The translations under genes and the position numbers were made by a program. A stretch of DNA of 64,000 nucleotides from IMG/VR virus record IMGVR_UViG_3300043465_002420, one strand, 5' to 3'. Under the pieces are notes generated by a model that saw only the letters and a program-made list of their open reading frames with translations, was not told where the DNA came from and did not search any database. This DNA comes from a virus. Below, in pieces: positions 7,622 to 55,300 of the stretch (position 1 is the stretch's first letter; every line of letters starts with the position of its first letter).

Positions 7622-8032
7622 TTATTTGGTGATTTCCGATACTGTTCCTGTTAGTTTGATATTTTGGATTGGATGCCAATCAGTAATATCATTGCTCATA
7701 GCTGGTTTACCTCCAGCGAGTGTATTAACTGCTATAGTTACATGAGGTATTTTGTTATTGCTTTTGAATCCATTTACTTTAACGGCAATAGCCATATTAC
7801 TTATTCCTATTTCCGATGCTATTAGATTAACTTCTTGGTTGATAAGAGAATCTTCTGGTGGGTTAAGTTTTCCCAAATTGATAGTCATATGGTGAGCAAA
7901 AGTCTTCCAATTTTCTGGTATATATTCTTTAAGTTCATCCAATAATTTTTCATGGCTTTGTTGGTTTAAGACAATGGCAGAGTAGGATACTTTTTTATCT
8001 TCTCTGTTTTCAATCCAGTTTTTGAAGTTCAT
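7622..8032 (-). CDS. 2H phosphoesterase (cyclic phosphodiesterase, tRNA-ligase CPDase-like) with MNFKNW leader
   Basis: Two HxT motifs: HHMTI and PHVTI. Confidence 0.75.
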   Translation of the reverse strand: MNFKNWIENREDKKVSYSAIVLNQQSHEKLLDELKEYIPENWKTFAHHMTINLGKLNPPEDSLINQEVNLIASEIGISNMAIAVKVNGFKSNNKIPHVTIAVNTLAGGKPAMSNDITDWHPIQNIKLTGTVSEITK

Positions 8033-8036
8033 TGGG

Positions 8037-8129
8037 TTACTTTGCAGCTATTGTTTGAGTTAAGTATTTATCGATTAGTTCTTGTATTTCTGGTGTTTTC
8101 TTTGTGTAATATTTTACCAGTTTAAATAT
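8037..8129 (-). pseudogene. orphan C-terminal tail of an ART-solenoid paralog (IFKLVKYYTKKTPEIQELIDKYLTQTIAAK*)
   Basis: Near-identical to the tails of 8770, 10171 and 15428; in frame directly after the TAA of 8130-8726. Confidence 0.8.
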
Positions 8130-8726
8130 TTAAACAGTAACTGAGTACCCTATCGATAGACAAAAATCATTAAATTTTGAATAATTTTTGTATTTTATGA
8201 AATCTTTATGTTCAAATTTTGTTCTTCCACGAACATGTTTTTTGCTATTGATATCAACTGGTTTTTTATATTGAATGCCAAGATAATCACATAAAATTTC
8301 GAGTTGATCTTCTATTCTTATTTTAAGTTCAACTCTTGTATGGTTTTGAATTTTCTGATATCTTTGAATCAAATTTTCCATAGCAGAATTAACATCAAAA
8401 ACTTCTCCATGATTAATTTGAATGCACAAATGACTATTTAAAACAGAAATTGGATTCCTATAAATTAGAACTATGGGCAATTTTGAAATAGGTTCATAGT
8501 TACAATATTCCATAGCAGTGTAATTACTTTCTCCTTTTGCTATTTTGTATAATGGAATTCCATCATATTCAATCATTCCATTTGGTCCGTAATTCCAAAT
8601 TGAAGTAACTGGATTATAATGTAGCATTTCATGGCAACAAGGAAAGCCGCAATATGTCAAATAATTAGCGGTAAATGAAGTTCCTCCACCGTAATTTCCA
8701 CAAAAAATATGTGTTAAATTATTCAT
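8130..8726 (-). CDS. sulfotransferase-like P-loop protein
   Basis: GNYGGGTSF 5'-PSB-like loop, CHE, IYRNPISVLNS; related to 40992-41717. Confidence 0.6.
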   Translation of the reverse strand: MNNLTHIFCGNYGGGTSFTANYLTYCGFPCCHEMLHYNPVTSIWNYGPNGMIEYDGIPLYKIAKGESNYTAMEYCNYEPISKLPIVLIYRNPISVLNSHLCIQINHGEVFDVNSAMENLIQRYQKIQNHTRVELKIRIEDQLEILCDYLGIQYKKPVDINSKKHVRGRTKFEHKDFIKYKNYSKFNDFCLSIGYSVTV

Positions 8727-8733
8727 AATATTC

Positions 8734-8766
8734 CTATAAAATTTTTATAATTTGTTTAAAGTTCAT
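8734..8766 (-). pseudogene. N-terminal stub MNFKQIIKIL* of a lost paralog
   Basis: ATGAACTTTAAACAA follows the AAK-stop junction exactly as the intact paralogs do. Confidence 0.65.
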
Positions 8767-8769
8767 GAT

Positions 8770-10167
8770 TTACTTTGCAGCTTGTGTTTGAGGTAAGTAT
8801 TTATTGATTAGCTCTTGTATTTCTGGTGTATTTCCGTGGTATGTTGTTATTAGGTTTGCCATTTCTTTTTTATCGGTTGTATAGTGAAATAGATAATAAG
8901 CAATGAGAGGAGATATTTTTAATTTAGATACAATCCATTCTATCATTGCTTTGTCATATCTTTCAAACACATAACGAATTAAGTCGATAATGTTGCTTTC
9001 GTAGAATTTTGATTCTTTAGCAATAATTAATTCTATTGTTTTTTTTGCATAAATTGGTTTAATATCATGAATAAGATCTTTAATATTTTTATAAGATATT
9101 TTGGGTTTTTTATTTATTATAAGTTTTTTAATTGGTTCTGGATAGGTTGAATATAAAGTCAAATGTCTGACATCATTATCAGAAAGTTCTGGTTTATAAT
9201 TTACAATTAATTGTGCTATATGATCATTATGACTACCTGCATATCCAAGAAGTTTCAATACATTATCATCAGAAAGGTTTGTTTTTTTCTTTAGGATTAG
9301 TTCTGCAATTTTAACTTTACCTTCGTTTGTTGTATAAAAGGCCAAATTTTTAATATCATTATCAGAAAGATTTGTTTTTTTATTGATGATTAGTTCTGCC
9401 ATTTTGTCTTTATCTGTTGTATTTTTTAGAACTCCTTCAATATTTCTATGAGATTGAAGAATTGCATCCAGTTGTTGGTCAGAAATTTTATTTGGGTTGT
9501 ATTTTTCTCTTTTGACAATTTGTCCTTTTTTATTTTTATCGATGATATTATTGTCGATAGAGTATAAGACTTTTAAGGCATCTTTTGCGAATACCACACC
9601 TTGAGTTGATTCTTGAGGGTGGATTGTGCCAGTTCCATGATCTACGAATCCATCGACACCACATTTTCTAAGATTAGAGTTCCATTCTGATGGTTTGTCA
9701 TTTGCGATTGCTTTTGTTACAAGCCATAGCATAGAATAATTGCTACGAAGATTATATTCATCTTTTTTTATTTTATCTTCAGCCTCGTAAACTTTTTTGA
9801 GCGAGAAAACATTACCACTATAAAGTATATCCATACCTTTTTGTTCTTCATCACTAGGATTCATATGTAATATTTTTTGTGGTCTTGTGAATTCGCAGAC
9901 ATTGAGATAAGGTTGATCTCCTGCGAATGGAACATCCATTTCATTTTCAATGACATAATTTAATGGATAAAAATAAATTCCGATTGGTGTTTTATATTCG
10001 CTTTTTGGATTGATCCCAACTTTATCGATTGCGGTATAAGTTACGACAAGGTTTTCTGGATTGGGATGAGTTTTTTGAATATGTTGTAGTGCGAGAAGGG
10101 GATCACGAAATTCTTGATCCTTTATCATTATCTTTTCAGTTAGTATTAGCCATTGTTTAAATTTCAT
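8770..10167 (-). CDS. type-B ART-like domain plus helical repeats, capsid-leader protein
   Basis: TPIGIYFYP and GFVDHGTGTIHPQESTQGVVF; ~29-aa repeats; ends QAAK; paralog of 13527. Confidence 0.6.
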   Translation of the reverse strand: MKFKQWLILTEKIMIKDQEFRDPLLALQHIQKTHPNPENLVVTYTAIDKVGINPKSEYKTPIGIYFYPLNYVIENEMDVPFAGDQPYLNVCEFTRPQKILHMNPSDEEQKGMDILYSGNVFSLKKVYEAEDKIKKDEYNLRSNYSMLWLVTKAIANDKPSEWNSNLRKCGVDGFVDHGTGTIHPQESTQGVVFAKDALKVLYSIDNNIIDKNKKGQIVKREKYNPNKISDQQLDAILQSHRNIEGVLKNTTDKDKMAELIINKKTNLSDNDIKNLAFYTTNEGKVKIAELILKKKTNLSDDNVLKLLGYAGSHNDHIAQLIVNYKPELSDNDVRHLTLYSTYPEPIKKLIINKKPKISYKNIKDLIHDIKPIYAKKTIELIIAKESKFYESNIIDLIRYVFERYDKAMIEWIVSKLKISPLIAYYLFHYTTDKKEMANLITTYHGNTPEIQELINKYLPQTQAAK

Positions 10168-10170
10168 AGT

Positions 10171-11646
10171 TTACTTTGCAGCTATTGTTTGAGTTAGGTA
10201 TTGATTGATTACTTGTTGAATTTTTGGTGTTTTATTTGTGTGGTATTTATTTAGTATTTGTGCCATTTTTGGTTGGTCTTTTTCATAATCAAGTAAATTT
10301 ATAATGTTCTGATCAGAAAGTTTGTTTATATTATCTGTTCCTAATAGTTTTGCTATTTGTTCTTTATCTATTGTATGTCGAAGTAAAGTAATAACATCGG
10401 CATCAGAAATTTCTGTTTTGTGTTTTATAATTAGTTCTGCTATTTTATCTTTGTTTATTGAATTTATAAGCAGATCATAAACACTTTGATAAGAAAGTTC
10501 TAATTTTTTATTTATAATTGCTTCTGCTATTTTATCTTTATCGGATGCACTATAAAGTAAAAGTTGGATTATAGTGCTAGAAAAGTTTGTTTTTTTGTTT
10601 ATAATTAGTTTTGCTATTTTATCTTTGTCTGTTGTAGTTTGTAACAAATCAACAACATTTGTATCAGAAAGTTTTGTTTTGTATTTTACAATTAGTTCTG
10701 CTATTTCGTTTTGTTTAGTTGAATTTTTAAGAAAAACTTTAACATTAGTATCAGAAAGTTTTGTTTTGTACTTTATGATTACTTCTGCCATTTTGTCTTT
10801 ATCTGTTGACTTTTTAATCAAAAGACTGACATCAAAATCAGAAAGTTCGTTTAGATTTGATCCTAAATATTTTGCTACTGCTTCTAAATTTTTAGAATTT
10901 AACAATTTATTAAAAATGCTTTTACCGATTTCGTAATTGTAACCAAATGAAAATTTTTCTCTGTTTGGTGATTTATAAATACTTTTCATACTTGCCTTAT
11001 CGGTGGAGGTAATCCAGCCAATATTACTCTTTAGATCTTTCATTTTTTGTTCATCGTTTGCATCTGCTTCTGCAACCGCATAACCCAACATTGTTATTGT
11101 TTCATCTTTAACTGGTTGATATTTAACTAAGCAGTAGCCATCATTTGCTCCATAATAGATAATTCCTTTAATTGATTTTTCTATCCAATCATTTTGGTCG
11201 TAGAATTTTTTTGCTAAAATTGCCGAATAGGTTTCTTTTTCTTGTAGTTCATCGTAGTGTTTTAAGTTGTCGCCTTTTTGACCACCAAATTCCCCTTTAG
11301 TTACTTTGTTTAGTAGTCCAAATTTCTTTAATTGACTGCTTATTTTGTAATCATTGCCATGGATTTTTTTTGCTTCAGATAATTCAAATATGAGGTACTT
11401 GTCAAGGTCTGTTACTTTAAATTTGACTAATGTTTCGCCATACATTTTCATATAATCGGTAAATTGACTTTCTATTTTATAAGTAGTATAAAGACCACAA
11501 CCATACCAACAACCTTTACCTGCTCCTGATTTGAAATCAGATGTGAGTATATTTGATACAGAGTCAACATTTGTCCTATGATAGACAGTTGCAGTCTTAT
11601 TTTGAGCATAAATTTCTTCAGATATTAGCCATTCTTTAAAGTTCAT
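10171..11646 (-). CDS. type-A PARP-like (H-Y) ADP-ribosyltransferase domain plus helical repeats
   Basis: VYHRT...ILTSDF...YGCGLYTT resembles the PARP HGT...GF...FG.GIY pattern; ends TIAAK. Confidence 0.65.
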   Translation of the reverse strand: MNFKEWLISEEIYAQNKTATVYHRTNVDSVSNILTSDFKSGAGKGCWYGCGLYTTYKIESQFTDYMKMYGETLVKFKVTDLDKYLIFELSEAKKIHGNDYKISSQLKKFGLLNKVTKGEFGGQKGDNLKHYDELQEKETYSAILAKKFYDQNDWIEKSIKGIIYYGANDGYCLVKYQPVKDETITMLGYAVAEADANDEQKMKDLKSNIGWITSTDKASMKSIYKSPNREKFSFGYNYEIGKSIFNKLLNSKNLEAVAKYLGSNLNELSDFDVSLLIKKSTDKDKMAEVIIKYKTKLSDTNVKVFLKNSTKQNEIAELIVKYKTKLSDTNVVDLLQTTTDKDKIAKLIINKKTNFSSTIIQLLLYSASDKDKIAEAIINKKLELSYQSVYDLLINSINKDKIAELIIKHKTEISDADVITLLRHTIDKEQIAKLLGTDNINKLSDQNIINLLDYEKDQPKMAQILNKYHTNKTPKIQQVINQYLTQTIAAK

Positions 11647-11650
11647 AAGG

Positions 11651-11658
11651 TATTTATG
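11651..11658 (-). promoter_or_regulatory. T4-type late promoter CATAAATA
   Basis: Ends 4 nt upstream of ATG 11646; the same octamer is at 37403-37410. Confidence 0.55.
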
Positions 11659-11744
11659 TGAGTTTAATCGGGAAATAAGTCTTGTGTGTAATAAAAATTT
11701 TGTTATATTTTAAATTAAATTAATTGTGTTATTCCTAACAGGAA

Positions 11745-12683
11745 ATGAACATGGAACCAAGAATTATCGGTTATTGCAGGGTAAGTGGCGATGGGCAACA
11801 TGGAAATGATCAAGATGGCGTACCCCGACAACATCGAGTCATAGAGTCTTGGGCAAAAAAGAACAAACAACGAATTAGCGAATGGATTGAAGATCTTGGT
11901 GTAAGTGGAACTTTAGCGTTTGCTGATCGACCAGAATTATCGAAATTACTTGCAAACATTTATCCTGCTGGAATTTTCGTTGTGGAAAAAGCTGATCGTC
12001 TTGCAAGGGATCTCATTGAAGGCGAATTAATCATTCGGCATTTTAGTAGAGCAGGTTGGAAAGTCATTTCTGCTGAAACTGGTGAAGACTTAGCAAATTC
12101 AGAATCACCAACTGCAATTCTAATGCGACAGCTTACAGGGGCAATAGCGGAATTTGACAGAAGGAACACTGTTGCAAGATTGCGAGTTTCGAGGGAAAGA
12201 AAACGAAAAGAAACGGGCAAATGCGAAGGACGAAAAGCCTTTAACAATCAAAGTGTTCTTATGCGAATCAGAAAACTTATGCGAAAGAAAAATGGCACTA
12301 AGCCCAGTTTGCAATGGGTTGCTAATCAATTAAATGCAGAAGGAATGATAACAGCTAGTGGGAAAATGTGGACTACTGGAATGGTTTACCACTTCGTTCA
12401 TGGTGCTGGCTCTAAAGTTAAAAGAGAATCTGGAATATTGTCGCCATCTACACAAAACAAGGAAATTAAAATGGCAAAGAAACTTGTGGTTAAAAAAATA
12501 CAAGTAAATAACAAATATACTTACATATGTGATAAACCAGTAAGGATAGGAAGTGAGGTTAAATTACCAACTCCTCATTGGATGCGTGAATTTCAAGATG
12601 ACACATGGATTGGTAAGGTAACTGATTTAAAGAGTGATTACGATGGTGTGTGTGAAAGTGTAATTGAAGTATTAAAAAAATAG
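11745..12683 (+). CDS. serine recombinase (resolvase/invertase family) with C-terminal fused ~70-aa ORF
   Basis: GYCRVS catalytic Ser, DLGVSG, DRPEL, EKADRLARD; helical DNA-binding region; internal AAGGA-ATG (MAKKLVV). Confidence 0.9.
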   Translation: MNMEPRIIGYCRVSGDGQHGNDQDGVPRQHRVIESWAKKNKQRISEWIEDLGVSGTLAFADRPELSKLLANIYPAGIFVVEKADRLARDLIEGELIIRHFSRAGWKVISAETGEDLANSESPTAILMRQLTGAIAEFDRRNTVARLRVSRERKRKETGKCEGRKAFNNQSVLMRIRKLMRKKNGTKPSLQWVANQLNAEGMITASGKMWTTGMVYHFVHGAGSKVKRESGILSPSTQNKEIKMAKKLVVKKIQVNNKYTYICDKPVRIGSEVKLPTPHWMREFQDDTWIGKVTDLKSDYDGVCESVIEVLKK

Positions 12684-12725
12684 GATTCATTTAATAGATA
12701 TAATAACTTTCAATGGAGATTTAAA

Positions 12726-13016
12726 ATGAAGTCTTTAATTTTGTTTTTGGTTATGTTTTTGGGTATTAGTAGTGTTGCTGAAGCACAGTTCATTGTTGTT
12801 TATCCACAAGTTAGATATTACAACAATTATGGTTACAATTACAACAACTACAATTACAATAACTATGGTTATAGAAACTATGGTTACAACAACTACAACA
12901 ACTACAATTATGGTTACAACAATAACTGGAATAGGTATGTGACACCAAGTGGATACATGCCATTTAACAATCCATATTTTCAGATGGCTACACAGGGAAT
13001 TGGTAGAGGTTGGTAG
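12726..13016 (+). CDS. secreted Tyr/Asn-rich low-complexity (prion-like) protein
   Basis: GGAG SD; signal peptide ending AEA-Q; YNNYNY repeats; C-terminal NNPYFQMATQGI. Confidence 0.75.
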   Translation: MKSLILFLVMFLGISSVAEAQFIVVYPQVRYYNNYGYNYNNYNYNNYGYRNYGYNNYNNYNYGYNNNWNRYVTPSGYMPFNNPYFQMATQGIGRGW

Positions 13017-13057: not shown

Positions 13058-13591
13058 ATGAAATCTTTTTATGAATATGTAAAAGTGCGTGATATTAATG
13101 AAGATTACTATGATTCTAGAAAACCCGTTGAAGGTTATGTTGATGCTAATGATTTAGTAGGACAAAGACTCTGGTTTCACACTAATAGAACTCATAAAAT
13201 TCAGGGTTTAAATGGCATGATTGGTATTTATCAAACTACACCAAGCGGTAGAAAAAAAGGATTGGCTGGCAAATATACAAATGAAGTAAGATTGTCGGAA
13301 CCTATTTTTTTTCAAACATCGGAATCTGGTGCCAAACAAATTATGGAAAAAGATAAAAGAACTTTAATTGCTGGTGTTTCTGGAAAAGTTGTTCCTACTA
13401 ATAATGATACAAGCGGTATGGTAAAGATTACTTATAATCCATTCAATGAAGATGCACCATGGTTTCATGCCATTGATGATTCAGAAAATAAAGAAATTGT
13501 GTCTGCTTCTGAAGTTTATTTCAATGCTACTGAAAATGGTCAGTGGGATATATGGGCAAAGAATCCTGTTCATGCTTTAAAAACTCTTTAA
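13058..13591 (+). CDS. hypothetical capsid-leader protein
   Basis: MKSFYEYVKVRDINE leader. Confidence 0.7.
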   Translation: MKSFYEYVKVRDINEDYYDSRKPVEGYVDANDLVGQRLWFHTNRTHKIQGLNGMIGIYQTTPSGRKKGLAGKYTNEVRLSEPIFFQTSESGAKQIMEKDKRTLIAGVSGKVVPTNNDTSGMVKITYNPFNEDAPWFHAIDDSENKEIVSASEVYFNATENGQWDIWAKNPVHALKTL

Positions 13592-14978
13592 TTTTTTCAT
13601 TTTTATTTTTATGATATTTTTCTATAATTTGTATTATTTTTGGTTTATCTTTTTCTGGAACTTTTTCATGTAAAAGTGTGATAGAAAACCAATTAAGTCT
13701 ACTTATATTATCTTCTCCTAATTTTTTTGCTATTTTGTCTTTATCAATTGCATAAGTTAGAATATTGATCATATTTTTATAAGTCATTTCTGGTAATCTT
13801 TCTATAAGAAGATTTGCCATCTTGTCTTTATCAGTTGCATATTGAAGAAAATTTTCGACATTATTATCAGTAAGTTTTGTTTTATAATCAATAATCAATT
13901 CTATGATTTTATCTTTATCGTTTACGAGTGAGATCATATATGAAACATTACTATCTGTAAATTCTGGGGTTTTTTGAATAATCATTTTTGCCATTTTGTC
14001 TTTATCTTTTGCATGATAAATCAAATCTTCAACATCGACATGAGAAATATATGTTTTATATTTTATGATTAGATCTGCCATTTTTTCTTTTTCTGTTGTA
14101 TTTTTAAACAAGTTTGTAAGATCTAAAGATCTACGAGATTGCAATAAGCCTATAATTTGTTCATCTGACATCTTATTGCTATTATATTTATCTGTTTTTT
14201 TGAAGTATGTTGAGTTGTCAATTGAGTGAAGTAGTTTCAAGGCACTGGTAGCAAAAACAACGCATTGGGTTGGTTCGCTTGGATGAATTGTTCCAGTTCC
14301 ATGATCTACAAATCCATCTATTCCACATTTTCTAAGATTGGCGTTCCATTGTGTGATTTTTCTATTTGCAAGTATTCTTGTTACGATCCACAATTTGGAG
14401 TAATTGCTACGAAGTTGGTATGCTGCTCCTTGCAATTCATCTTTTACATAATCATAATAAGTTTTGGCATCAATATACTTTTTATAAAGATCATCTTCTT
14501 TTTCTTGATCATATTGAAGATTATTCAGTTTGGTTTTTTTGTGATCTGATAATTTTTGAGCTTTATTGAACATGTCTACTGATGGATTAATTTCTTTAAT
14601 AGCTTGATCTACTTGTTCTTTTGGAAAAACATTGAGTAGTTCCATTCCATCTTGTTTAGACACATCGGGATTCATATGTAATATTTTTTGTGGTCTTGTG
14701 AATTCGCAGACATTAATATAAGGTTGATTTGCAGCGAATGGAACATTCATTTTCTTTTCAATTACATAATCTATAGGATAGAGATAAATGCCAAGTGGTG
14801 TTTCATATTTGCTTTCTGGATTAAGACCAACTTTATCGATTTTGGTAAAAGTTACGGCTAGTGTGTTGGGGAAAGGGTGATTTTTTCGAATATATTGTAG
14901 TGCAATAAGAGGCTCACGGAATTCTTGATCCTTTATCATTATCTTTTCTGTCAGTAGTAGCCATTCTTTAAAGTTCAT
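13527..14978 (-). CDS. type-B ART-like domain plus helical repeats (native tail replaced)
   Basis: TPLGIYLYP, HPSEPTQCVVF; tail diverges after IKEFLK and overlaps 13058-13591. Confidence 0.6.
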   Translation of the reverse strand: MNFKEWLLLTEKIMIKDQEFREPLIALQYIRKNHPFPNTLAVTFTKIDKVGLNPESKYETPLGIYLYPIDYVIEKKMNVPFAANQPYINVCEFTRPQKILHMNPDVSKQDGMELLNVFPKEQVDQAIKEINPSVDMFNKAQKLSDHKKTKLNNLQYDQEKEDDLYKKYIDAKTYYDYVKDELQGAAYQLRSNYSKLWIVTRILANRKITQWNANLRKCGIDGFVDHGTGTIHPSEPTQCVVFATSALKLLHSIDNSTYFKKTDKYNSNKMSDEQIIGLLQSRRSLDLTNLFKNTTEKEKMADLIIKYKTYISHVDVEDLIYHAKDKDKMAKMIIQKTPEFTDSNVSYMISLVNDKDKIIELIIDYKTKLTDNNVENFLQYATDKDKMANLLIERLPEMTYKNMINILTYAIDKDKIAKKLGEDNISRLNWFSITLLHEKVPEKDKPKIIQIIEKYHKNKNEKIKEFLKHEQDSLPIYPTDHFQ

Positions 14979-15424
14979 TGGGTTATCTTTTTTGAAAAAA
15001 CACTTAATATAAATTCTTTTATGTATGGAACAAAATCATAATTATTTATTTCATCTTTTGTAATAAATTTATAATTTGAATTTTCATAATCTAATTTTAT
15101 ATTTTGACTTTCTAATTCTCCATAAAAATAATAAATCTCTCCAGCATCAACAGTCATTATTTTATGATCAAAAGAAACATTATTTGGTTTTAATCCTATT
15201 TCTTCAAGGCACTCTCTTATTATGGCTTCTTTTGGGTTTTCTCCTTCTTCAATTCCGCCACCTACTAAGCTCCATTTGTTTGGCATCCAAGGAGCAGTAG
15301 ATCCTCTTTTTAGTATTAAGACTTTATTATCATTTAAAAGTCCTATTACAGATGTTTTAAATTTAGAATGATCTGTATCAGTTGATGTCTCTTCTTTCAG
15401 TATTAGCCATTCTTTAAAGTTCAT
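14975..15424 (-). CDS. NUDIX hydrolase with capsid leader
   Basis: GGGIEEGENPKEAIIRECLEEIGL Nudix box; MNFKEWLILKEE. Confidence 0.9.
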   Translation of the reverse strand: MNFKEWLILKEETSTDTDHSKFKTSVIGLLNDNKVLILKRGSTAPWMPNKWSLVGGGIEEGENPKEAIIRECLEEIGLKPNNVSFDHKIMTVDAGEIYYFYGELESQNIKLDYENSNYKFITKDEINNYDFVPYIKEFILSVFSKKITQ

Positions 15425-15427: not shown

Positions 15428-16993
15428 TTACTTTGCAGCTATTGCTTGAGGTTCAAGGTATTTATCGATTAGCTCTTGAATTTCTGATGTTTTATTTGTG
15501 TGATATTTGTTTATGATTTGTGCGATTTTTGGTTTGTCGGTTACAGCAACAAGCAAACGATAAACACCATCATCAGAAAGTTCTGGTTCCTTTTTCATAA
15601 TATATTCTGCTATTTTTTCTTGGTCTTTTGCATATCGAATCAAATCACGAACACCATTTTCAATATCTATTTTTGATAGTTTGTTTATGATTAATTCTAT
15701 TATTTTGTCTTTGTCGTTTGCTTTAAAAATAAAATAATAAACATTATCCTCAGAAAGCTCTGGTTTGTATTTTATGATTATTTTTAACATCTCGTCTTTG
15801 TCATTTACTCTTGCAATCAAATCACGAATAAGAAGATTAGAAAGTTTGCTTATATTGTCTTTTTCTTTTTGCAATATTTCTGCTATTTTTTCTTTATTGT
15901 TTGCCTTAAGAAGCAAATAATAAATATTATCATCAGAAAGTTCTGGTTTCTTTTCAATAATTAGTTCTGCTATTTTGTCTATGTTATCTGCATAAGAAAG
16001 CAAATGAAAAACATTATGATCAGAAAGTTCTGGTTTCTTTTCAATAATTAATTTTGCTATTATATCTTTTTCCTTTGCATTCATAATTGAAGTGCTGACA
16101 TCTTTGTCAGAAAGTTTTGTTTTATACTTTATAATTACTTCTATCATTTTTTCTTTATCGGTTGCCTTATAAAGTAAAACGCCAACATTATCTTGAGAAA
16201 GTTGGTTTAGATTTGATCCTAATTTTTTTGCTGTGTATTCTACATTTTTAGATTTTAACAATTGATTCATAATATGGACATTGTCATCTTCGCCAAATGA
16301 AAATTTTTCTCTATTAGATATTGGTGATTTATAAATACTTTTAATACTTGCCTTATCGGTGGAAATAATCCAATTTTTTGATTTTGGATTTTTAAGTTCT
16401 TCCATCTTTTTCATATCATCATATTTTGCAACTGCATAGGCCAACATGGTTATTGTTCCATCTTGGACTGGTTCATATTTAACTAAACAATAACCATCAT
16501 TTGCTCCATAATAAATAATTCCTTTTACCGAATTTTCTATCCATTTGTTTTTTTCGTAGAATTTTACCGCCAAAACCGATGAAAAGCTTTCTTTTTCTTG
16601 TTGTTCATCGTATTCTTTCAACTTACTTTCATCTACTTTGTTTAATACTCCTAATTTCTTTAATTGATCGCTTATTTTGTAATCCTTGCCATGTATTTGT
16701 TTTGCCACAGATAATTGAAATATAAGATATTTATCGAGATCTGTTACTTTAAATTTGACTACTGCTTTACCATAAGTTTCCATGTAATTAGTAAATTGGC
16801 TTTCTATTGCAAAAGTAGTGTAAAAACCACAACCATACATACAACCTGAACCAACTTTAAAATCTTTTGTGAGTATGCTTGATACAGCTTGAACGCTTTT
16901 TTCTTCATCGCAACCAGGACAAGTTCTATGATAGACAGTTGCAGTCTTATTGGGGAAGATTTCTTCAGATATTAGCCATTCTTTAAAGTTCAT
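15428..16993 (-). CDS. type-A PARP-like ART plus helical repeats
   Basis: VYHRT, YGCGFYTT, GIIYYGANDGYCLVKY; ends AIAAK. Confidence 0.65.
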   Translation of the reverse strand: MNFKEWLISEEIFPNKTATVYHRTCPGCDEEKSVQAVSSILTKDFKVGSGCMYGCGFYTTFAIESQFTNYMETYGKAVVKFKVTDLDKYLIFQLSVAKQIHGKDYKISDQLKKLGVLNKVDESKLKEYDEQQEKESFSSVLAVKFYEKNKWIENSVKGIIYYGANDGYCLVKYEPVQDGTITMLAYAVAKYDDMKKMEELKNPKSKNWIISTDKASIKSIYKSPISNREKFSFGEDDNVHIMNQLLKSKNVEYTAKKLGSNLNQLSQDNVGVLLYKATDKEKMIEVIIKYKTKLSDKDVSTSIMNAKEKDIIAKLIIEKKPELSDHNVFHLLSYADNIDKIAELIIEKKPELSDDNIYYLLLKANNKEKIAEILQKEKDNISKLSNLLIRDLIARVNDKDEMLKIIIKYKPELSEDNVYYFIFKANDKDKIIELIINKLSKIDIENGVRDLIRYAKDQEKIAEYIMKKEPELSDDGVYRLLVAVTDKPKIAQIINKYHTNKTSEIQELIDKYLEPQAIAAK

Positions 16994-17010: not shown

Positions 17011-18516
17011 TTATGTAAATGATCCAGTTGATAGAACTTTTTTACCTAAATTTAATTTATATCCGCTGCTGTATTTATCAATGAATTCTTGAATTTTTGG
17101 AGTTTTCTTTGTGTGGTATTTGTTTATTATTTGTGCTATTTTGTCTTTATCGTTTGCATCATCATGAAATAAATCAATAACACTTTGATCATCAAGCTTG
17201 CTTATGTTGTCTTCTTTTTCTTGTAATCGTTCTGCTATTTTTTCTTTATCGTTTGCAAAATTAAGCAAATATTGAACATCGAAATAAGAAAGTTCTGGTT
17301 TATTTCCAATAATTAGTTCTGCTATTTTGTCTTTATCTGTTGCTTTACGAAGCAACAATTCAACATGTTTACCAGAAAGTTTTGATTTCTTTTCAATAAT
17401 TAGTTCTGCTATTTTATCTTGTTTGTCGGTTGCAAACTGAATCAAGCTATAAATATTCATATTAGAAAGTTCTGGTTTATTTTTAACAATTAATTCTGCT
17501 ATTTTGTCTTTGTTGGTTGCAGTACGAAGCAAATTTTCAACATTCTCATCAGTAAGTTCTGTTTTATATTTTATAATTAGTTCTGCTATTTTGTCTTTGT
17601 CGGTTGCATAATGAAGCAAATGAAAAACATTCCAATCGGTAAGTTCTGTTTTATATTTTGCAATCACTTCTGCCATTTTGTCTTTATCTTCTGCATGATG
17701 AAGCAAACCAGAAATATTCTCATCAGAAAATTTGTCTAGATATAATCCTAATTTTTTTGCTGTTTTTTCTAAGTTTTTAGATGTTAAAAAAATATTTTTG
17801 ACATTTTCGATTTCGCTATAATCTCCAAATGCAAACTTTTCTTTATTTTCGATTGGAGATTTATAAACATTTTTAATGGGTGTACCTAATATACCAACTG
17901 ATTTAATCCAACCAATATTACTTTTCAGTTCTTCCATCTTTTTCATATCATCATATTTTGCGACTGCATAGCCCAACATGGTTATTGTTTTATCTTGAAC
18001 TGTTGGATATTTAACTAAACAATAACCATCTCTTGATCCATAATAGATAATTCCTTTTACCGACTTTTCTATCCAATTATTTTGTTCATAGAATTCATAT
18101 GCCAAAACTGATGAAAATTTTTCTTTTTCTTGTCGTTTATCGTAATATTCTAATTTACTTTCATTTACATTTGGTTTGTTTAGTAGTCCTAATTTTTTAA
18201 ATTGACTGCTAATTTTATAATCATTGCCATGTATTTGTTTTGCCTCAGACAATTGAAATATGAGGTATTTATCGAGGTCTGTTACTTTAAATTTGACTAA
18301 TGCTTCGCCATACATTTCCATATAATCGACAAATTGGCTTTCTATTTTATAAGTAGTATAAAGACCACAACCATAAGAGCAACCTGCACCTGCACCTGCT
18401 TTAAAATCAGATGTGAGTATGCCTGATACATCTTTGAGACTTCTTGTTCTATGATAGACTGTTGCGGTCTTATTGGGGAATATTTCTTCAGATATTAACC
18501 AATGTTTAAAGTTCAT
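17011..18516 (-). CDS. type-A PARP-like ART plus helical repeats (tail altered)
   Basis: Same motifs; tail KYSSGYKL... replaces KYLxQxIAAK. Confidence 0.65.
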   Translation of the reverse strand: MNFKHWLISEEIFPNKTATVYHRTRSLKDVSGILTSDFKAGAGAGCSYGCGLYTTYKIESQFVDYMEMYGEALVKFKVTDLDKYLIFQLSEAKQIHGNDYKISSQFKKLGLLNKPNVNESKLEYYDKRQEKEKFSSVLAYEFYEQNNWIEKSVKGIIYYGSRDGYCLVKYPTVQDKTITMLGYAVAKYDDMKKMEELKSNIGWIKSVGILGTPIKNVYKSPIENKEKFAFGDYSEIENVKNIFLTSKNLEKTAKKLGLYLDKFSDENISGLLHHAEDKDKMAEVIAKYKTELTDWNVFHLLHYATDKDKIAELIIKYKTELTDENVENLLRTATNKDKIAELIVKNKPELSNMNIYSLIQFATDKQDKIAELIIEKKSKLSGKHVELLLRKATDKDKIAELIIGNKPELSYFDVQYLLNFANDKEKIAERLQEKEDNISKLDDQSVIDLFHDDANDKDKIAQIINKYHTKKTPKIQEFIDKYSSGYKLNLGKKVLSTGSFT

Positions 18517-38523: not shown

Positions 38524-38829
38524 TTATTTGCTATTCCAAGCAGCATGACTTTCTTCTCTTCTTTTTTTCAATTCAATATCAATATAACTATTTATTTGTC
38601 GATATAAAGGCAAAGATTTGCAAGCAAGCATTAATGGAATTGTTAATTTTTCTATTTTGACTTTATCGTTTTTCAATTTAGCTTGGACATAATCCTGCAA
38701 AATAGTTACTGGCACATTTTTAAATTGTGCTATAGTTTTGTTGATAAATTCATCATCCATAGCCCTAATTGGGTTCACATGTGGTGCAAAGTCAAACAAT
38801 CCTTCAAGATACTGATAAAAAGTTTTCAT
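38524..38829 (-). CDS. capsid-leader hypothetical protein
   Basis: MKTFYQYLE; GAGGA SD. Confidence 0.65.
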   Translation of the reverse strand: MKTFYQYLEGLFDFAPHVNPIRAMDDEFINKTIAQFKNVPVTILQDYVQAKLKNDKVKIEKLTIPLMLACKSLPLYRQINSYIDIELKKRREESHAAWNSK

Positions 38830-44534: not shown

Positions 44535-46115
44535 ATGAATACATTTTCTGAATTTTTTATAGCACAACAAAAAAATGATGTGACATTTTTTCTAGAAAGT
44601 AATCATCAACAATTTGAAGATTCCAAAGAACTTTTCTATAACATGATTTGTAAATTTGGAAATGATCCAATCATATTAGAAGCATGGGGCGATTGGTGGA
44701 ATAAAGCCAAGGAATATGCTGGAAAGGCATGGAATTGGGCCAATAATAAAGATATGAGTTTACAGGATATTGCCACAGGAACTGGGAATTTGGCAAAAGG
44801 TGTGGTTACTGGATACAAACAAGGTTATAAAGCCACAGAAGGCGAAGCTGGAATAAAGAAAATAGAAAGTATTGCAAAAGAAGTATCAGAATTAGCAAAA
44901 TCTTTTTCACAAAAATATAAAGTCGATCCAGTAACAGCAGCGGTTCTTATTTCTGCTGGTGCTACTGGTGGTCTTGGTGCAATTCCAATGATGGCAATAG
45001 CAATAGGATTAAGAAGAAGTGGATCATGGTTAGCCGATAAAGGATTTGAGAAAGTTTGGGAAAAATTAACTGGTACGACTGTAGATCAAGCTGATGCTGC
45101 ATGGCAAGGAAGCTCTGCCTCTGCTCCAAAGATGGCAAGCCCTGCTTCTTCTCCAAAGATGGCAGATCCTGCTGGAACATTTAATGTAATGAACCCCTCA
45201 GCAAATTCCGCATCAATTAAAGATCATTTTCAAAATTCTGGAAATCTTACATTTGAACAATACATCATGTCTAGAGATCCAGAAATGTACATGGAATTAA
45301 CAAGTTGGTTAAAACAACTTGTTGGTAAAGGTGCAAAGAAAGCTGGTGAATTTGCTGGTAATGTTGCACAAGGAGCAAAGGATTATGCAAAAGATGTCGG
45401 AGAAAGAGGATTTGGAACTGCAACTGGAGAAAGGGCTGGAAGAGTTTTGGGAAAAGGTGCTGGAACTTTTGTAAACATTTGGAGCGTACTTAAAAAGAGT
45501 ATTGCAAATGTTGGTAAGTTTATGGCCAACAATCCAGTTAAAACATCTAAATTGGTATTGGCTATTGCTGCTGGAAGTATGATTGGTCATTATGGAACAC
45601 AAGCAATCAATAATTTCATTCATAAGCCTTCATCTGACCAAATAGGAGAAATTACAAAAGCCGCTAAAGACTCTGGTGTTTCTGATACTGACATAAATGA
45701 TATTCATAAAGATACTGGATATTCTGGTAAAGGTGGAGATTTCAGTAATGCTATTGGTGCAAAAATTAGTTATGGCAATGCAGTCGCACAAGCCAAAGCA
45801 GATATCGTTCAAAGCATTAGAGATGGAAATATTACAGATTATGAAACTTTACAAAAAGCAATTAAAGATGCACATAATAAATTTTTCCCACTATTAGATC
45901 CTATTGGAAAAAGAGTTTTTGACAGTAAATTAGATATGCATATCACAAGCTTGGCTGGCAATGGTGCTACAGGAAATGCTGCCGAATTAACAATGAAAAT
46001 CATTAAAAATGCTGGTGGAACTCCAAATATCGAAGCCCTTTCAAATATGGGGCAAGCAATAAACAAAATTAAATCGTCATTAAATACTGATCAGATTGGT
46101 ATTGACAACTATTAA
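44535..46115 (+). CDS. capsid-leader Gly/Ala-rich membrane-inserting-like protein with internal second leader
   Basis: MNTFSEFF; VDPVTAAVLISAG...LRR; internal LTFEQYIMSRDPEMYME. Confidence 0.65.
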   Translation: MNTFSEFFIAQQKNDVTFFLESNHQQFEDSKELFYNMICKFGNDPIILEAWGDWWNKAKEYAGKAWNWANNKDMSLQDIATGTGNLAKGVVTGYKQGYKATEGEAGIKKIESIAKEVSELAKSFSQKYKVDPVTAAVLISAGATGGLGAIPMMAIAIGLRRSGSWLADKGFEKVWEKLTGTTVDQADAAWQGSSASAPKMASPASSPKMADPAGTFNVMNPSANSASIKDHFQNSGNLTFEQYIMSRDPEMYMELTSWLKQLVGKGAKKAGEFAGNVAQGAKDYAKDVGERGFGTATGERAGRVLGKGAGTFVNIWSVLKKSIANVGKFMANNPVKTSKLVLAIAAGSMIGHYGTQAINNFIHKPSSDQIGEITKAAKDSGVSDTDINDIHKDTGYSGKGGDFSNAIGAKISYGNAVAQAKADIVQSIRDGNITDYETLQKAIKDAHNKFFPLLDPIGKRVFDSKLDMHITSLAGNGATGNAAELTMKIIKNAGGTPNIEALSNMGQAINKIKSSLNTDQIGIDNY

Positions 46116-50874: not shown

Positions 50875-51945
50875 TCATGTGTTAATATCCATTTTATTTT
50901 TAGATTCTTCTAAGCTAAATCCAAGTTGTTTGAATTCTTTCAATCTAAGAATTTGATCCAAATTTAAGTTACCAGCGGATTCAGCCCAGTCTTCAATTAA
51001 TTTAGTTTTTAATTCCAAATCTGGGTTTGAGAAACATTTAACATATTTAAATCTGCTAGGCCTACTTCTTAAAGCCTCGTCTATTTTTTCAATGTTATTT
51101 GCAGTCAATATAAAAACAACTTTTTCATAAGAGTTATAAACACCATCTAAACAATTAAGTATTACATCAAATGTAAACTTGATTCCCATATTGTTACTTC
51201 CGTTATTGCCTTCTCCTATGATGCACTTTCTGCCATCAAAGTAATTATCAAAATCTTCCAAAAGAACAATCGTACCTGATGATATCTGAGAAAACATGAA
51301 CATGATGTCTATATTCGTAAATTCGGGAACGAATGTGATAATTGTTATTGGCAAATTATGTTTAACCGCAAGGTATTTTACATAAGAAGTTTTTCCATTA
51401 CCTGGTTCACCATACAAAATAGCTCCTGTTTTAGAGTTGTTCAACAATATATTTCCTATCTCATCATCAAAGTCTTTCCATAAACTTTCTGGGAATATAG
51501 GATTATTGGCGTATTTAATAGCTCCAATTTTATCTGTGTTCCATGGAGTTGCTATTCTAACTGGTACACCAAACAAATTAATTTGCAATTCCTTGAGACT
51601 AACTTCTAAAAAAGTTTTTATATTTTTGTAATTCCAGCGAGTACACATTATAGAAGTAACTAAGTCCTTGCCTTGAAATCCAGCTTGAAGCAATCTCTCG
51701 TAATGACTAATGTAAAACCATGGGAAATTTTTATTGAAACAAAAAGCCCTGTAAACTACCGGATGTCTTATCTCGGTAAAAAACTCTTCATCAATTATAA
51801 ATTTTTTTTCATCTTTGCAAATGTCATAAAGAGTTCTGAATGTGTTATTGTCGATTCTTATTTCTACTAAAATCAAATATCTAATTACTGCCCATATACC
51901 AACAGCAATTCCACTCAATGCCAATATCGGTGTCATCCAGTTCAT
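50875..51945 (-). CDS. membrane-anchored BCS1-like AAA+ ATPase
   Basis: N-terminal TM; GEPGNGKT; LLEDFD; LNCLDG; ALRSRPSRF. Confidence 0.8.
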   Translation of the reverse strand: MNWMTPILALSGIAVGIWAVIRYLILVEIRIDNNTFRTLYDICKDEKKFIIDEEFFTEIRHPVVYRAFCFNKNFPWFYISHYERLLQAGFQGKDLVTSIMCTRWNYKNIKTFLEVSLKELQINLFGVPVRIATPWNTDKIGAIKYANNPIFPESLWKDFDDEIGNILLNNSKTGAILYGEPGNGKTSYVKYLAVKHNLPITIITFVPEFTNIDIMFMFSQISSGTIVLLEDFDNYFDGRKCIIGEGNNGSNNMGIKFTFDVILNCLDGVYNSYEKVVFILTANNIEKIDEALRSRPSRFKYVKCFSNPDLELKTKLIEDWAESAGNLNLDQILRLKEFKQLGFSLEESKNKMDINT

Positions 51946-51947
51946 AT

Positions 51948-52370: not shown

Positions 52371-52458
52371 TTTAAAAATCTCCTCTTGATCAAATCAAAA
52401 TAATCATGCATATTGTACAGAAATAAATGAGTCACTGTCAAACTGATAATGGACTGCG

Positions 52459-53496
52459 ATGAAATACATAACACACATAGGTCGCAAATTTTTAAGGAAT
52501 GGTGGTGCTGAAATCCTTTTAAGAAGCATTTCATCACATGAGATGTTTCAAGGCGATTTGCAATTCAGACAAAGTTTATGCATCGATAGAAATTTTTATG
52601 ATAAAGAATTTTGCGAAACATTTCCTCATCCTGTATATCTTGGTGGAAAAAACGAAATAACTAAAGCAATTGAAAATGAAGATATAATTTTATTTTGGGG
52701 AGACATCCAATTAAATAATCTAGATATTCCAAAACCAAAAGTTTGCATATTGTTCGTGTGCAGCGAAGAGCCTAATATAGTTTCCAATAATTCAAGCTAT
52801 ATTACACATTGCATTGCGACATCAAAGAGAACGGCACTTAATTCGTGTGGCAATATACCATATACAGTAATTTACCCTGGATTTGATGAAATAAGACTAA
52901 CGCCAACAGAAACTAGAGATTCGCAAAGAAAAAAAATGGGTCTTGGCGATGATGATTTTTTAGTTGGTATGATTTCAAGAATTGGAGAAAACAAAAGACA
53001 ATTTTGGCTTATGGAGGCAATTCAAAAAATAAATTCAGAAAAAATAAAAGCAGTTTTTGTTGGTGGAGGAAAAGATTTAAAAAAACTTAAAAATATGAAT
53101 GTAAGAAATTGTTTGTTTGTCGGTCATCAAGATGATGTTGCAAATTGGTATCTGGCCATGGATGCTTTTTGTATATTGTCAAGAAGTGAAGGAGGGCCAA
53201 CAACCTTATTCGAATCATCTTATATGAAAGTTCCGTTGATATATACAGATTGCGGATTTACAAAAGAATTGTGCAATAGTTACAATTCTTTCTTTGTAAG
53301 AGATGTTAAAGATTTAATAGAAGTTATAAAAATCATGCATTCATTAGGAAAAGAAAATTTAAAAAGATATACAAATAATAATTATAGCATATATGAAGAG
53401 TTTGGATCTATAGAAAAATCGGCCAAAAATTGGTACAAAACAATTAAAGATGTAGTGGCAAAAAAAGAAAGGGAAAATTGCAGATTACTTTCATAA
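52459..53496 (+). CDS. GT4 family glycosyltransferase
   Basis: GMISRIGENKRQ, SRSEGGPTTLFE. Confidence 0.8.
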   Translation: MKYITHIGRKFLRNGGAEILLRSISSHEMFQGDLQFRQSLCIDRNFYDKEFCETFPHPVYLGGKNEITKAIENEDIILFWGDIQLNNLDIPKPKVCILFVCSEEPNIVSNNSSYITHCIATSKRTALNSCGNIPYTVIYPGFDEIRLTPTETRDSQRKKMGLGDDDFLVGMISRIGENKRQFWLMEAIQKINSEKIKAVFVGGGKDLKKLKNMNVRNCLFVGHQDDVANWYLAMDAFCILSRSEGGPTTLFESSYMKVPLIYTDCGFTKELCNSYNSFFVRDVKDLIEVIKIMHSLGKENLKRYTNNNYSIYEEFGSIEKSAKNWYKTIKDVVAKKERENCRLLS

Positions 53497-54108
53497 TCCA
53501 ATTCTTTTTATTCTTTTTAAATTTTTAATGTTAGAAGAACTTTTTTCATAATCTTGTTTGATCAGATCCATAAATTTTTCTTTTAAATTTTCTGGTATAG
53601 ACATTAAAATCTTATCAATTAATTTATAATCGATGTAAAAAGTTCCTAACTTTACAAGTCCAAACTCACTAGAAAACCTTTTGTAAAAATCATGATACAT
53701 AATTTTCAAAGATGCAAATTCAGTGCTAAATTCTAAAGCAACAGGATTTTCCTTGTCTATTACAGTCTTTATTGACTTCAAGGCTTCTGAATATACTTTA
53801 TATGGATTCATGCTTTTTCCACTAGGAGAAAGTTCATCTTTAGCACCTTCTAATGTCATAAAAACAACATAGGTTGGTCTTGTTAATTCGTCTTTAAATT
53901 TGTTTTCATATTTGAATAAGTCTGGCATTTTTTGGAATAGAAAGTCTTTGACTCCTCTTGGATGCCTTATAAAATTCATTTTATATTTTTCATTTTCAGA
54001 AGCATAGAAATGGTAGTCGTATTGCCATTTACTTCCTTGCAATGCCACTGGCTTGAAATCTGATAAAACAGACCGCAATTCATTTATATATTGATAAAAC
54101 GATTTCAT
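53491..54108 (-). CDS. capsid-leader protein (paralog of 43545 and 54542)
   Basis: Start MKSFYQYINE at 54108; NPYKVYSEA...ENPVALEF...MYHDFYKRF. Confidence 0.6.
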   Translation of the reverse strand: MKSFYQYINELRSVLSDFKPVALQGSKWQYDYHFYASENEKYKMNFIRHPRGVKDFLFQKMPDLFKYENKFKDELTRPTYVVFMTLEGAKDELSPSGKSMNPYKVYSEALKSIKTVIDKENPVALEFSTEFASLKIMYHDFYKRFSSEFGLVKLGTFYIDYKLIDKILMSIPENLKEKFMDLIKQDYEKSSSNIKNLKRIKRIGL

Positions 54109-54150
54109 GAATGTATATATATTTAACCAAGGCATTCTCAAGAGGTTATA

Positions 54151-54540
54151 ATGAAAAGTATTAATGAATTTAAGGCAAGCGGAAAAATTAAAGACTTAGT
54201 TTATAAATTATTTGAAGCAAGACAAGTCTCTCATACTGCTCATTTACAAACAAAAAGTTATGCCGAACATAAAGCTTTAAATTCTTTTTACAACGACCTA
54301 CTTGATTTAGCAGATACATTCATTGAAACATACCAAGGCCAATATGGAATTATTAGTGGGTATGAAAGCATGAGTATTGAAAAAGAATCAGATATTGTCA
54401 AATACCTTGAAGATTTTGCCAATGTAATCAAATCGAATAGAAAAAACTTAAATGAAGATGACACTCATTTGCATAATATACTTGATGAGATTATGGGTTT
54501 GACTTTTCAAACTATTTACAAATTAAAATTTCTAAAATAA
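54151..54540 (+). CDS. ferritin/Dps-like four-helix protein (DUF5856-like)
   Basis: HTAHLQTKSYAEHKAL..FY..L.DL.D.FIETYQGQYG. Confidence 0.7.
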   Translation: MKSINEFKASGKIKDLVYKLFEARQVSHTAHLQTKSYAEHKALNSFYNDLLDLADTFIETYQGQYGIISGYESMSIEKESDIVKYLEDFANVIKSNRKNLNEDDTHLHNILDEIMGLTFQTIYKLKFLK

Positions 54541-54541
54541 A

Positions 54542-55300
54542 TTATGATATTGAAGATGCTTTATTTTTATGAGACATTTTAAATTTTCTTATTTTAGAAA
54601 CATAAGATTTCTTTTCTAAATCTACATCTTGTATTATTTTAATGAGTTTATCTGGTAAAGATTGATCTATTTTTCTTGAATCTCTTATTATGCTATCAAT
54701 TTTTTCTTTCTTTATATAAAAGTCAGATCCAACAAAAGCGTATTGGGTGTGAAGATAATGTTTGTAAAATCTATCATATATTGATATTAAGCTTGGGTCT
54801 TGATCACTGGGAGATATCCAAAACGCATCAGGATTCTTTTCCTCGATAACCTTTCTGGTTGCAACAATCACATTGGCATATACAAATAATGGATCGCTTT
54901 CTTCAAATTTACCAAATTTTGGAGTAAAATTACTTTTTTCGCTATATAAATCTAATTTGAAAATTGATTTTAGATTATTTAAAAATATATCAATAATTTT
55001 TTTACCTAAATCAGAATTCTTATCGATTGAAAGTTTTGCGAGAAATATCTTAGCAATTTCAGCCGATAATCTTCTGCCGAAATTTTCAAATTGAACTTCA
55101 TAATTGTCAGAATGCTCAATATCATATTCTTTTGATTTAAATTGATATCCAAAACCAGTACCAAAATTAGACAACTTGACAGAATTAAGTGGTGCTTGCA
55201 TCGCTGGATATGTTTTCCCAGTTATGGGATCAGTCCAATTAAACGAAACTTCTTGCAACAAATCTTCAATAAGGTAATTTTTAAAATTCAATTTGAACAT
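54542..55300 (-). CDS. capsid-leader protein (paralog of 43545 and 53491)
   Basis: NFKNYLIE; DPLFVYAN...KNPDAFW...IYDRFYKHY. Confidence 0.6.
   Translation of the reverse strand: MFKLNFKNYLIEDLLQEVSFNWTDPITGKTYPAMQAPLNSVKLSNFGTGFGYQFKSKEYDIEHSDNYEVQFENFGRRLSAEIAKIFLAKLSIDKNSDLGKKIIDIFLNNLKSIFKLDLYSEKSNFTPKFGKFEESDPLFVYANVIVATRKVIEEKNPDAFWISPSDQDPSLISIYDRFYKHYLHTQYAFVGSDFYIKKEKIDSIIRDSRKIDQSLPDKLIKIIQDVDLEKKSYVSKIRKFKMSHKNKASSIS

Follow-up and report, generated by a model that had tools for sequence, protein, structure and literature searches.

The 64,000-nucleotide viral stretch IMGVR_UViG_3300043465_002420, here called the window, encodes between positions 7622 and 55300 a large set of proteins that begin with the same kind of short peptide. 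This N-terminal tag and the proteins that carry it are the subject of our analysis. The window has a GC content of about 30% across its length and is densely coding on both strands. With the strict pattern M-x(0-3)-[FY]-[KSYIQEHNT]-x-[WYF]-[LIVFMW], applied to open reading frames (ORFs) of at least 60 aa, we find the tag on 25 ORFs, all matching at most 29 codons from the upstream stop, while looser versions are found on 2 more genes. An earlier reading of the DNA letters (the sequence-only reading) had proposed a common leader on about 25 proteins, which agrees with our count, and the seven N-termini that it quoted are all present on the genes to which it assigned them. The 27 carriers are 101 to 723 aa long, have one recognisable effector domain each, and are listed below (ART, ADP-ribosyltransferase; AF2, AlphaFold2; pLDDT, predicted local distance difference test).

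7622-8032, minus strand: 2H phosphoesterase-like protein, tag MNFKNWIENRE; weak PF08302 match, HxT motifs at residues 48 and 97, PHROG match from residue 16
8770-10167, minus strand: ART-fold protein of subfamily 2 with C-terminal 29-aa repeats, tag MKFKQWLILTE; AF2 pLDDT 85, ART-PolyVal and ART-fold matches
10171-11646, minus strand: ART-fold protein of subfamily 1, tag MNFKEWLISEE; strict motif and BLAST family
13058-13591, plus strand: protein with a Phage_L5_gp82-like domain from residue 63, tag MKSFYEYVKVRD
13527-14978, minus strand: ART-fold protein of subfamily 2, tag MNFKEWLLLTE; strict motif and BLAST family
14975-15424, minus strand: NUDIX hydrolase, tag MNFKEWLILKEE; NUDIX domain from residue 25
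15428-16993, minus strand: ART-fold protein of subfamily 1, the modelled member, tag MNFKEWLISEE; AF2 pLDDT 91 overall and 49 for residues 1-10, ART-fold matches
17011-18516, minus strand: ART-fold protein of subfamily 1, tag MNFKHWLISEE; strict motif and BLAST family
18520-19092, minus strand: carrier without assigned function, tag MITFIEWLLE; strict motif
21214-23385, minus strand: ART-fold protein of subfamily 1 with about ten 29-aa repeats, tag MNFKHWLLSEE; translation truly begins at the ATG at 23385
23458-24678, plus strand: carrier without assigned function, tag MKFKIWLENDE; strict motif
26768-28015, minus strand: CCA-adding enzyme of the PolyA_pol family, tag MKFKQWLFSEE; domain from residue 39
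28017-28862, minus strand: Gly/Ala-rich protein (by composition) with a hydrophobic segment, tag MKTFSQYIE
28877-29332, minus strand: carrier without assigned function, looser tag MKEYTFKKFLE
30210-30752, minus strand: carrier without assigned function, tag MITFQSFLKK...LIE; strict motif
30762-31547, minus strand: carrier without assigned function, tag MKSFNLYLVE; strict motif
31625-32059, minus strand: carrier without assigned function, tag MNFKNWIESE; strict motif
32056-32556, minus strand: carrier without assigned function, tag MKSFKNWFNE; strict motif
32613-33785, plus strand: carrier without assigned function, tag MNFKQWFFNE; strict motif
37538-38167, plus strand: doubtful carrier, a Methyltransf_24 enzyme with MTFSEFIKNE; tag only from an internal Met at 37538, no hydrophobic-x-Glu site
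38524-38829, minus strand: small protein, tag MKTFYQYLE; strict motif
42211-42819, plus strand: Gly/Ala-rich protein (by composition), tag MKSFHEYVE
42971-43483, minus strand: stand-alone C39 cysteine peptidase, tag MQFKNWLLQEE; domain from residue 15
43545-44468, minus strand: carrier without assigned function, tag MRFKNWIIINE; strict motif
44535-46115, plus strand: Gly/Ala-rich protein, N-terminal tag MNTFSEFF without Glu; second, internal tag-like motif at residues 238-250
53491-54108, minus strand: carrier without assigned function, tag MKSFYQYINE; strict motif
54542-55300, minus strand: carrier without assigned function, looser tag MFKLNFKNYLIE

The motif is strongly concentrated at gene starts. 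It opens 25 of the 82 non-overlapping genes, compared with three distinct sites among 385 internal Met residues (Fisher p = 9e-18). A Glu follows within four residues of the motif in 24 of the 27 tags, whereas the core motif, where it occurs internally, is so followed in only 5 of 27 copies (p = 3e-7), and 25 of the 27 tags contain a hydrophobic-x-Glu site ending at residues 8-15. The tag occurs in two forms, MNFKxWL(I/L)xEE and MK(S/T)Fxx(Y/W)(I/L/V)xE, and both have the same layout: an aromatic residue, a second aromatic at +3, an aliphatic residue at +4 and then Glu. We rejected the reading of the tag as a signal peptide for secretion, as it is acidic and amphipathic and has no hydrophobic core.

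Beyond the tag, the carriers have little in common. Once the first 15 residues are removed, BLAST groups the 27 proteins into 19 families, 13 of them singletons, in line with the claim of the sequence-only reading that they are otherwise unrelated. Domains detected with Pfam or PHROG always begin past the tag, at residue 15 in the C39 peptidase, 16 in the 2H protein, 25 in the NUDIX hydrolase and 39 in the CCA-adding enzyme. The NUDIX, CCA and C39 enzymes had all been named as tagged, as had a group of Gly/Ala-rich membrane-like proteins, for which we count three carriers with hydrophobic segments. The two 2H enzymes that had also been named are reduced to one, the protein at 7622-8032 with its weak PF08302 match and two HxT motifs; a second 2H enzyme was not found. 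Most tagged proteins have no match in PHROGs. The tag is absent from the housekeeping genes of the window (glycosyl-, methyl- and sulfotransferases, helicase, AAA ATPase, GNAT, resolvase and Fe-S protein), and one of the two NUDIX genes is tagged while the second, at 20736-21146, is not.

The carrier at 44535-46115 (plus strand) differs from the others in its second tag-like motif, LTFEQYIMSRDPE, which comes after a Ser/Ala/Pro linker with a 27-bp repeat (45110-45173). This motif could have arisen by the joining of two tagged units, or it could mark a place where the protein is processed internally.

Six carriers are paralogues with C-terminal 29-aa repeats and belong, by their N-terminal domains, to two subfamilies of four and two genes; at the profile level the tag is the sole part that the two subfamilies have in common. 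The C-terminal halves are built of 87-bp (29-aa) repeats whose number varies among the paralogues from 2 to about 10 copies, with repeat stretches at 10312-10877, 15878-16069, 17229-17707 and 21673-22588. Pfam scans at E <= 0.01 assign these six proteins to no ART family and detect neither a MuF-type head-association domain nor ART-PolyVal on any carrier, and a sequence search of the PDB with the ART family returned nothing relevant.

Using the AlphaFold model of subfamily 1 (pLDDT 91), nearly all of the best 50 VIA-align matches, including the whole top of the ranking, are ART-superfamily folds: MbcT is the best (Z 7.7), followed by ParT, cholix, diphtheria toxin and PARPs, and the top match in BFVD is a PolyVal ADP-ribosyltransferase (E = 6e-6). 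The model of subfamily 2 (pLDDT 85) has ART-PolyVal-like matches with E = 4e-6 to 1e-4, and its structural matches in the PDB are mostly ART folds, the best solved one being the pre-ejectosome protein of cyanophage A4 (Z 6.8). In subfamily 1, candidate residues for a catalytic motif (H-Y-E or R-S-E in ARTs) are the invariant H22, R23, Y74 and Q110 and the nearly invariant Y58. According to the models, the N-terminal domains of both subfamilies have an ART fold resembling ART-PolyVal, and the six ART-like proteins of the sequence-only reading therefore hold at the level of the fold.

We then asked at which level the tag is conserved. Within the tag, the Ser at position 3 is encoded by TCT, TCG, AGT and AGC, that is, by both TCN and AGY codons, and Leu by CTA, TTA, TTG and CTT. 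In an alignment of subfamily 1 (the query and 24 homologues, 32-63% identical) residues M1, F3, K4, W6, E10 and E11 are invariant. The tag is retained on 115 of the 120 listed subfamily-1 homologues, which are 31-60% identical, and on 79 of the 103 listed for subfamily 2, whose most distant members begin with M(K/R)xxEF(L/I)xE, close to the MKTYQEFIAE of phage T4. Because synonymous codons vary while the residues stay, and because the tag is kept on homologues as little as 31-60% identical, the sequence comparisons indicate that it is under selection as a peptide. In both AF2 models residues 1-10 have a mean pLDDT of 49-52 and form a short helix at residues 3-9/10, ahead of the confidently modelled domain.

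The tag is also portable, since the same kind of enzyme occurs with and without it. In a relative of the window phage, the IMG/VR contig G001, the 2H orthologue is untagged and the CCA orthologue carries MKFKLWLENEE; one of the two NUDIX genes of the window is tagged; and among homologues of the CCA enzyme the N-terminus varies by lineage (FKxWL, FRxFLE and LLREYIxE types), after which the catalytic domain begins at a conserved IP(M/L)P. A peptide that is retained on an enzyme and yet varies between phage lineages is what one expects of a signal that co-evolves with its receptor. Many phage-like CCA homologues outside the clade (P0195-P0238) likewise begin with a short amphipathic peptide ending in hydrophobic-x-Glu (M.LLREYIRE and MTILSKLIRQLVEQ types), and the tagging of CCA enzymes may be widespread among phages.

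The closest known counterpart of the tag is the capsid-targeting sequence of T4. The leader is the only thing that the T4 internal (Ip) proteins have in common (PMC12373910; PMC3012670), and the first 10 residues of internal protein III (IPIII) suffice for encapsidation; targeting depends most on residues 4 and 7, while gp21 processing depends most on residues 8 and 10 (PMC9026906). Both the T4 tag and the variation of tagged cargo among T-even phages are established (PMC3012670, PMC9026906, PMC12373910). In the T4 record, IPII and IPIII start with MKTYQEFIAE and IPI with MKTFKEFTS. The MK[ST]Fxx[YW][ILV]xE class of window tags matches the IPIII determinants position for position, and the MNFKxWLxxE class does so with a one-residue shift. 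We built a position-specific scoring matrix (PSSM) only from the window tags and ran it over 100 kb of T4, which holds 798 Met-starts with 50 or more codons; among these it ranks IPI 2nd, IPII 6th and IPIII 9th; counting IPII and IPIII as one, the chance of such a result is about 1e-4.

The likeness to T4 extends beyond the residues. The T4 capsid-targeting sequence of IPI, IPII and IPIII, which is cut by gp21, is also a short N-terminal peptide on unrelated proteins, in which aromatics three apart are followed by an aliphatic residue and then Glu. The T4 record is annotated with a packaged ART, Alt, and ARTs would be among the cargo of the window phage as well. A gp20/gp21/gp22/gp23-type head module accompanies the tag in T4 and in the relatives of the window phage described below. 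On the other hand, T4 has three internal proteins compared with 25-27 carriers in a single 48-kb stretch here, and its cargo consists of small basic inhibitor proteins, whereas that of the window would be mostly enzymes of 100-720 aa. The commonest form in the window, MNFKxWLxxEE, has one residue fewer ahead of its first aromatic, and its Lys and Trp take the places of the Gln and Phe of T4. Unlike that of T4, the host of the window phage is probably no enterobacterium.

To relate the tag to a head protease we used IMG/VR contigs found via the ART family or via the tag itself, and searched them with the Pfam family Peptidase_S77, to which gp21 belongs (curated cut-off 27 bits). Matches above the cut-off were obtained in G001 (137 kb), G004 (44 kb), G008 (181 kb) and the more distant G003, with scores of 88-101 bits in G001, G004, G008 and the 595-kb uncultured phage LR756511.1. 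In the tag-bearing relatives the S77 protease adjoins a Glu-rich scaffold-like protein, a gp23-like major capsid protein and a Portal_T4 protein; in G001 and G004 the order is portal, large acidic protein, protease, Glu-rich coiled-coil scaffold-like protein and capsid protein. Within 319 residues, the scaffold-like protein contains 18 [LIV]-x-E sites. The capsid protein shares 30% identity with T4 gp23, matched 2562 T4-like records, and has its best match, at 81%, in LR756511.1. Judged by these genes, the relatives are huge phages with T4-type heads.

G001 carries ten tagged genes consecutively at 92.4-98.3 kb and a tagged 120-aa gene between its portal and head core genes, and LR756511.1 has about 30 tag-like starts in 1018 genes, five times the internal rate. 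A metagenome scan returned 112 relatives of the protease. On the IMG/VR contig L144 (197,541 bp, 28% GC, with a composition near that of the window) 13 consecutive same-strand genes at 259-13000 are tagged, mostly with MNFKNWLL; this is the densest tag array that we saw. The metagenome contig L125, also of 197,541 bp, carries the S77 protease, and the two are probably the same contig. A further protease-bearing contig, L060 (198,226 bp), has the same size as the longest contig encoding the ART homologue P0104. As an experimental bridge we considered XacN1, a cultured jumbo phage with a gp23-like capsid protein (33% identity) and a partial virion proteome, and rejected it: the chitinase, lipase and M23 peptidase packed into its virions lack a comparable tag.

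Taken together, these comparisons suggest that the common N-terminus is probably a capsid-targeting propeptide of the T4 type. The tag would be a short flexible amphipathic helix, with two aromatics three apart and then an aliphatic residue, that binds the scaffolding core during prohead assembly, so that each tagged protein is built into the head. A prohead protease of the gp21 family (Peptidase_S77) would then degrade the scaffold and cut the tags after the conserved Glu of the hydrophobic-x-Glu site at residues 8-15, freeing the cargo within the head. At infection the cargo would exit with the DNA and act ahead of phage gene expression. It would consist mostly of enzymes, namely the six ART-fold proteins, the NUDIX hydrolase, the 2H protein, the CCA-adding enzyme and the C39 peptidase, together with the Gly/Ala-rich membrane-like proteins. 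As speculation, the ARTs may mediate takeover, the NUDIX and 2H enzymes may destroy nucleotide signals, the CCA enzyme may repair tRNA 3' ends and C39 may act by proteolysis.

The type of cargo fits injection, because both ART subfamilies match the ART-PolyVal domains of polyvalent proteins, described as injected by Iyer et al. (PMC7824862), because the best solved match of subfamily 2 is a capsid-internal protein, and because T4 packages Alt. The sequence-only reading had proposed a portable tag that recruits anti-defence or takeover enzymes into the head, and our results support this in part. The tag is real and portable, is selected at the protein level, matches the T4 positions and is found in relatives with a T4-type head including the S77 protease; for the tagged proteins, we infer binding, cleavage, packaging, ejection or injection, and an anti-defence role by analogy with T4.

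Several observations weigh against this interpretation. Tagged genes make up about 30% of the genes in 48 kb, which implies far more cargo species than the three internal proteins and Alt of T4. Two carriers have no Glu site nearby, and a methyltransferase within a glycan cluster has one of the tag-like starts. The T4 internal proteins rank high with the PSSM, yet not cleanly first, and the Z scores of the ART-fold matches are modest, with a maximum of 7.7. There are no head genes within the window, and the link to the protease therefore rests on the relatives. Among these, the long, tag-bearing contigs G005, G006 and G007 show, as far as their sequence was recovered, no protease, capsid or portal gene of the T4 type; they may be incomplete fragments or may have a different head type.

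The tag could instead be a handle for machinery other than the prohead core. It might address proteins to a membrane-anchored AAA+ translocase or chaperone or to some other compartment of the virion, be recognised by a protein ligase, or act as a degron for timed proteolysis. The window does encode an AAA ATPase with an N-terminal hydrophobic helix (50875-51945), and Iyer et al. propose that BCS1-like AAA+ proteins of phages move folded proteins into heads (PMC7824862). We nevertheless consider this unlikely. The tag is laid out as in T4, down to the hydrophobic-x-Glu site that typifies substrates of the gp21 family; T4-type head modules accompany it in G001, G004 and G008, and probably also in the 197.5-kb contig; and no result suggests a specific partner besides the head core. 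The AAA ATPase itself (minus strand) has an architecture reminiscent of BCS1-type translocases, and its sole match is PF00004.

Less probable still is that the common start arose mainly as a side effect of duplicated genes and cassette recombination, with the conserved junction acting as a recombination joint and the peptide having no targeting role. Six carriers are indeed paralogues, and between 7.6 and 23.4 kb the junctions are nearly identical in DNA: ...QTIAAK*, 2-4 nt, and then ATGAACTTTAAAGAATGG... An orphan copy of the C-terminal piece at 8036-8105 (minus strand), cut off by upstream stops and lying just ahead of the 2H gene, looks from its sequence like a recombination scar or cassette joint. 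Against this, 13 carrier families are singletons with no detectable similarity to other carriers beyond the tag, codons switch synonymously while residues stay, and the tag persists on 31-60% identical homologues and on the CCA enzymes of distant phages with different GC content; nor would recombination explain the Glu rule and the aromatic spacing. Junction recombination may well spread the tag, which is compatible with targeting. It is very improbable, in turn, that the conserved first codons serve translation initiation by keeping the start of weakly led or leaderless mRNAs AT-rich and unstructured, where the host is not reliant on Shine-Dalgarno pairing. The codons of the tag are AT-rich, a Shine-Dalgarno-like motif is present at only 9 of the 27 tagged genes, and an ATAAAT/TATAAA/TAAATA box lies within 20 nt of the ATG in 10 of the 27 compared with 5 of 55 other genes (p = 0.005). 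However, Trp (TGG) and the pattern of aromatic, aliphatic and Glu residues are kept as amino acids while codons switch, including TCN/AGY Ser, the two sequence classes have a residue pattern in common rather than nucleotides, and most window genes do without the tag. The link of the ATAAAT-type boxes to late promoters is only modest.

At the junctions 10167/10171, 15424/15428 and 18516/18520, the conserved C-terminal peptide of several tagged paralogues, ...KTPEIQELIDKYLTQTIAAK*, ends 2-4 nt ahead of the next tag.

Returning to a T4-type capsid-targeting propeptide, we compared the tagged set with other systems of injected or head-internal proteins. Polyvalent proteins are described by Iyer et al. 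(cited in PMC7824862) as large injected multi-domain proteins of phages and conjugative elements that combine ART-PolyVal with many effector domains. Both ART subfamilies are structurally closest to ART-PolyVal domains, and the repertoire of ART, 2H and peptidase recalls polyvalent proteins. These, however, hold many domains in one giant polypeptide, whereas the window has separate genes with one effector domain each and its own short tag; the fusion of domains that defines polyvalent proteins is not seen here.

The propeptides of phiKZ-like phages are longer, are not known to share a 10-residue N-terminal tag and carry a small residue at P3. The window tags, unlike these, have a hydrophobic P3, as in T4. 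In phiKZ-like giant phages such as SPN3US the head contains more than 50 proteins, and many of these are matured by a prohead protease with cleavage after Glu (PMC5694885, PMC7411985, PMC10052503). SPN3US-type phages resemble what we propose for the window phage in being giant phages with numerous head-internal protein species and a protease cutting after Glu, which in the window phage would be of the gp21 family. In cyanopodophage A4, the pre-ejectosome protein is an ejection protein located inside the capsid (PMC12002296). Among solved structures it matches subfamily 2 best (PDB 9k3a chain B, Z 6.8, 158 residues aligned), and it differs from the carriers in several respects: the similarity is weak, and it is a 1071-residue chain of a podovirus with no common tag.

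Within the paper library that was searched, we came across no account of such a tag in huge phages. What is new is the scale (25-27 carriers in 48 kb), the mainly enzymatic cargo, and its setting in huge uncultured phages with one tag per effector instead of polyvalent fusion. A wider proposal, for and against which we see equal weight, is that huge freshwater phages with T4-type heads form a widespread clade that packs into the capsid dozens of enzymes, each encoded by its own gene, by means of a lineage-co-evolving 10-residue tag, as a 'distributed polyvalent protein' toolkit for takeover, counter-defence and tRNA repair that acts ahead of any phage gene expression. If the tag functions in the same way as that of T4, the injected protein set of uncultured giant phages would be predictable from sequence, and it would greatly exceed, in size and in enzyme content, all those described for T4-like phages. 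The ART-fold enzymes, NUDIX and 2H proteins (nucleotide signals), the CCA enzyme (mending cut tRNAs) and the stand-alone C39 peptidase would then be candidates for takeover or counter-defence in the first minute of infection, and the tags would form a natural collection of short packaging signals for loading proteins into phage heads.

The remainder of the window contains a mixture of Pfam families, comprising glycosyl-, methyl- and sulfotransferases, a helicase with HA repeats, an AAA ATPase, GNAT and a serine recombinase, and many proteins without Pfam matches. Compared with GenBank phages, the window has zero DNA matches, the ART protein gives zero tblastn matches, and only remote helicase matches are obtained; the phage therefore has no cultured close relative there.

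Some further features were observed beside the tagged genes. The serine recombinase (11745-12683, plus strand; Resolvase domain E = 2.5e-26) lies on the opposite strand within the minus-strand array of tagged genes. Two untagged proteins, at 19109-20677 (minus strand) and 33798-34202 (plus strand), have a different N-terminus in common, MS(H/Q)Y(T/F)NQ..I(T/S)E..WW. A tandem array at 2057-2590 has a period of 18/36 bp and about 14-20 copies, and the minus-strand ORF call at 2041-2427 across it looks like repeat DNA and not a gene. Finally, a small protein at 12726-13016 (plus strand) has a signal peptide and a Tyr/Asn-rich repeat, and is 74% identical to an ORF located about 7 kb from the protease in the metagenome locus L080.

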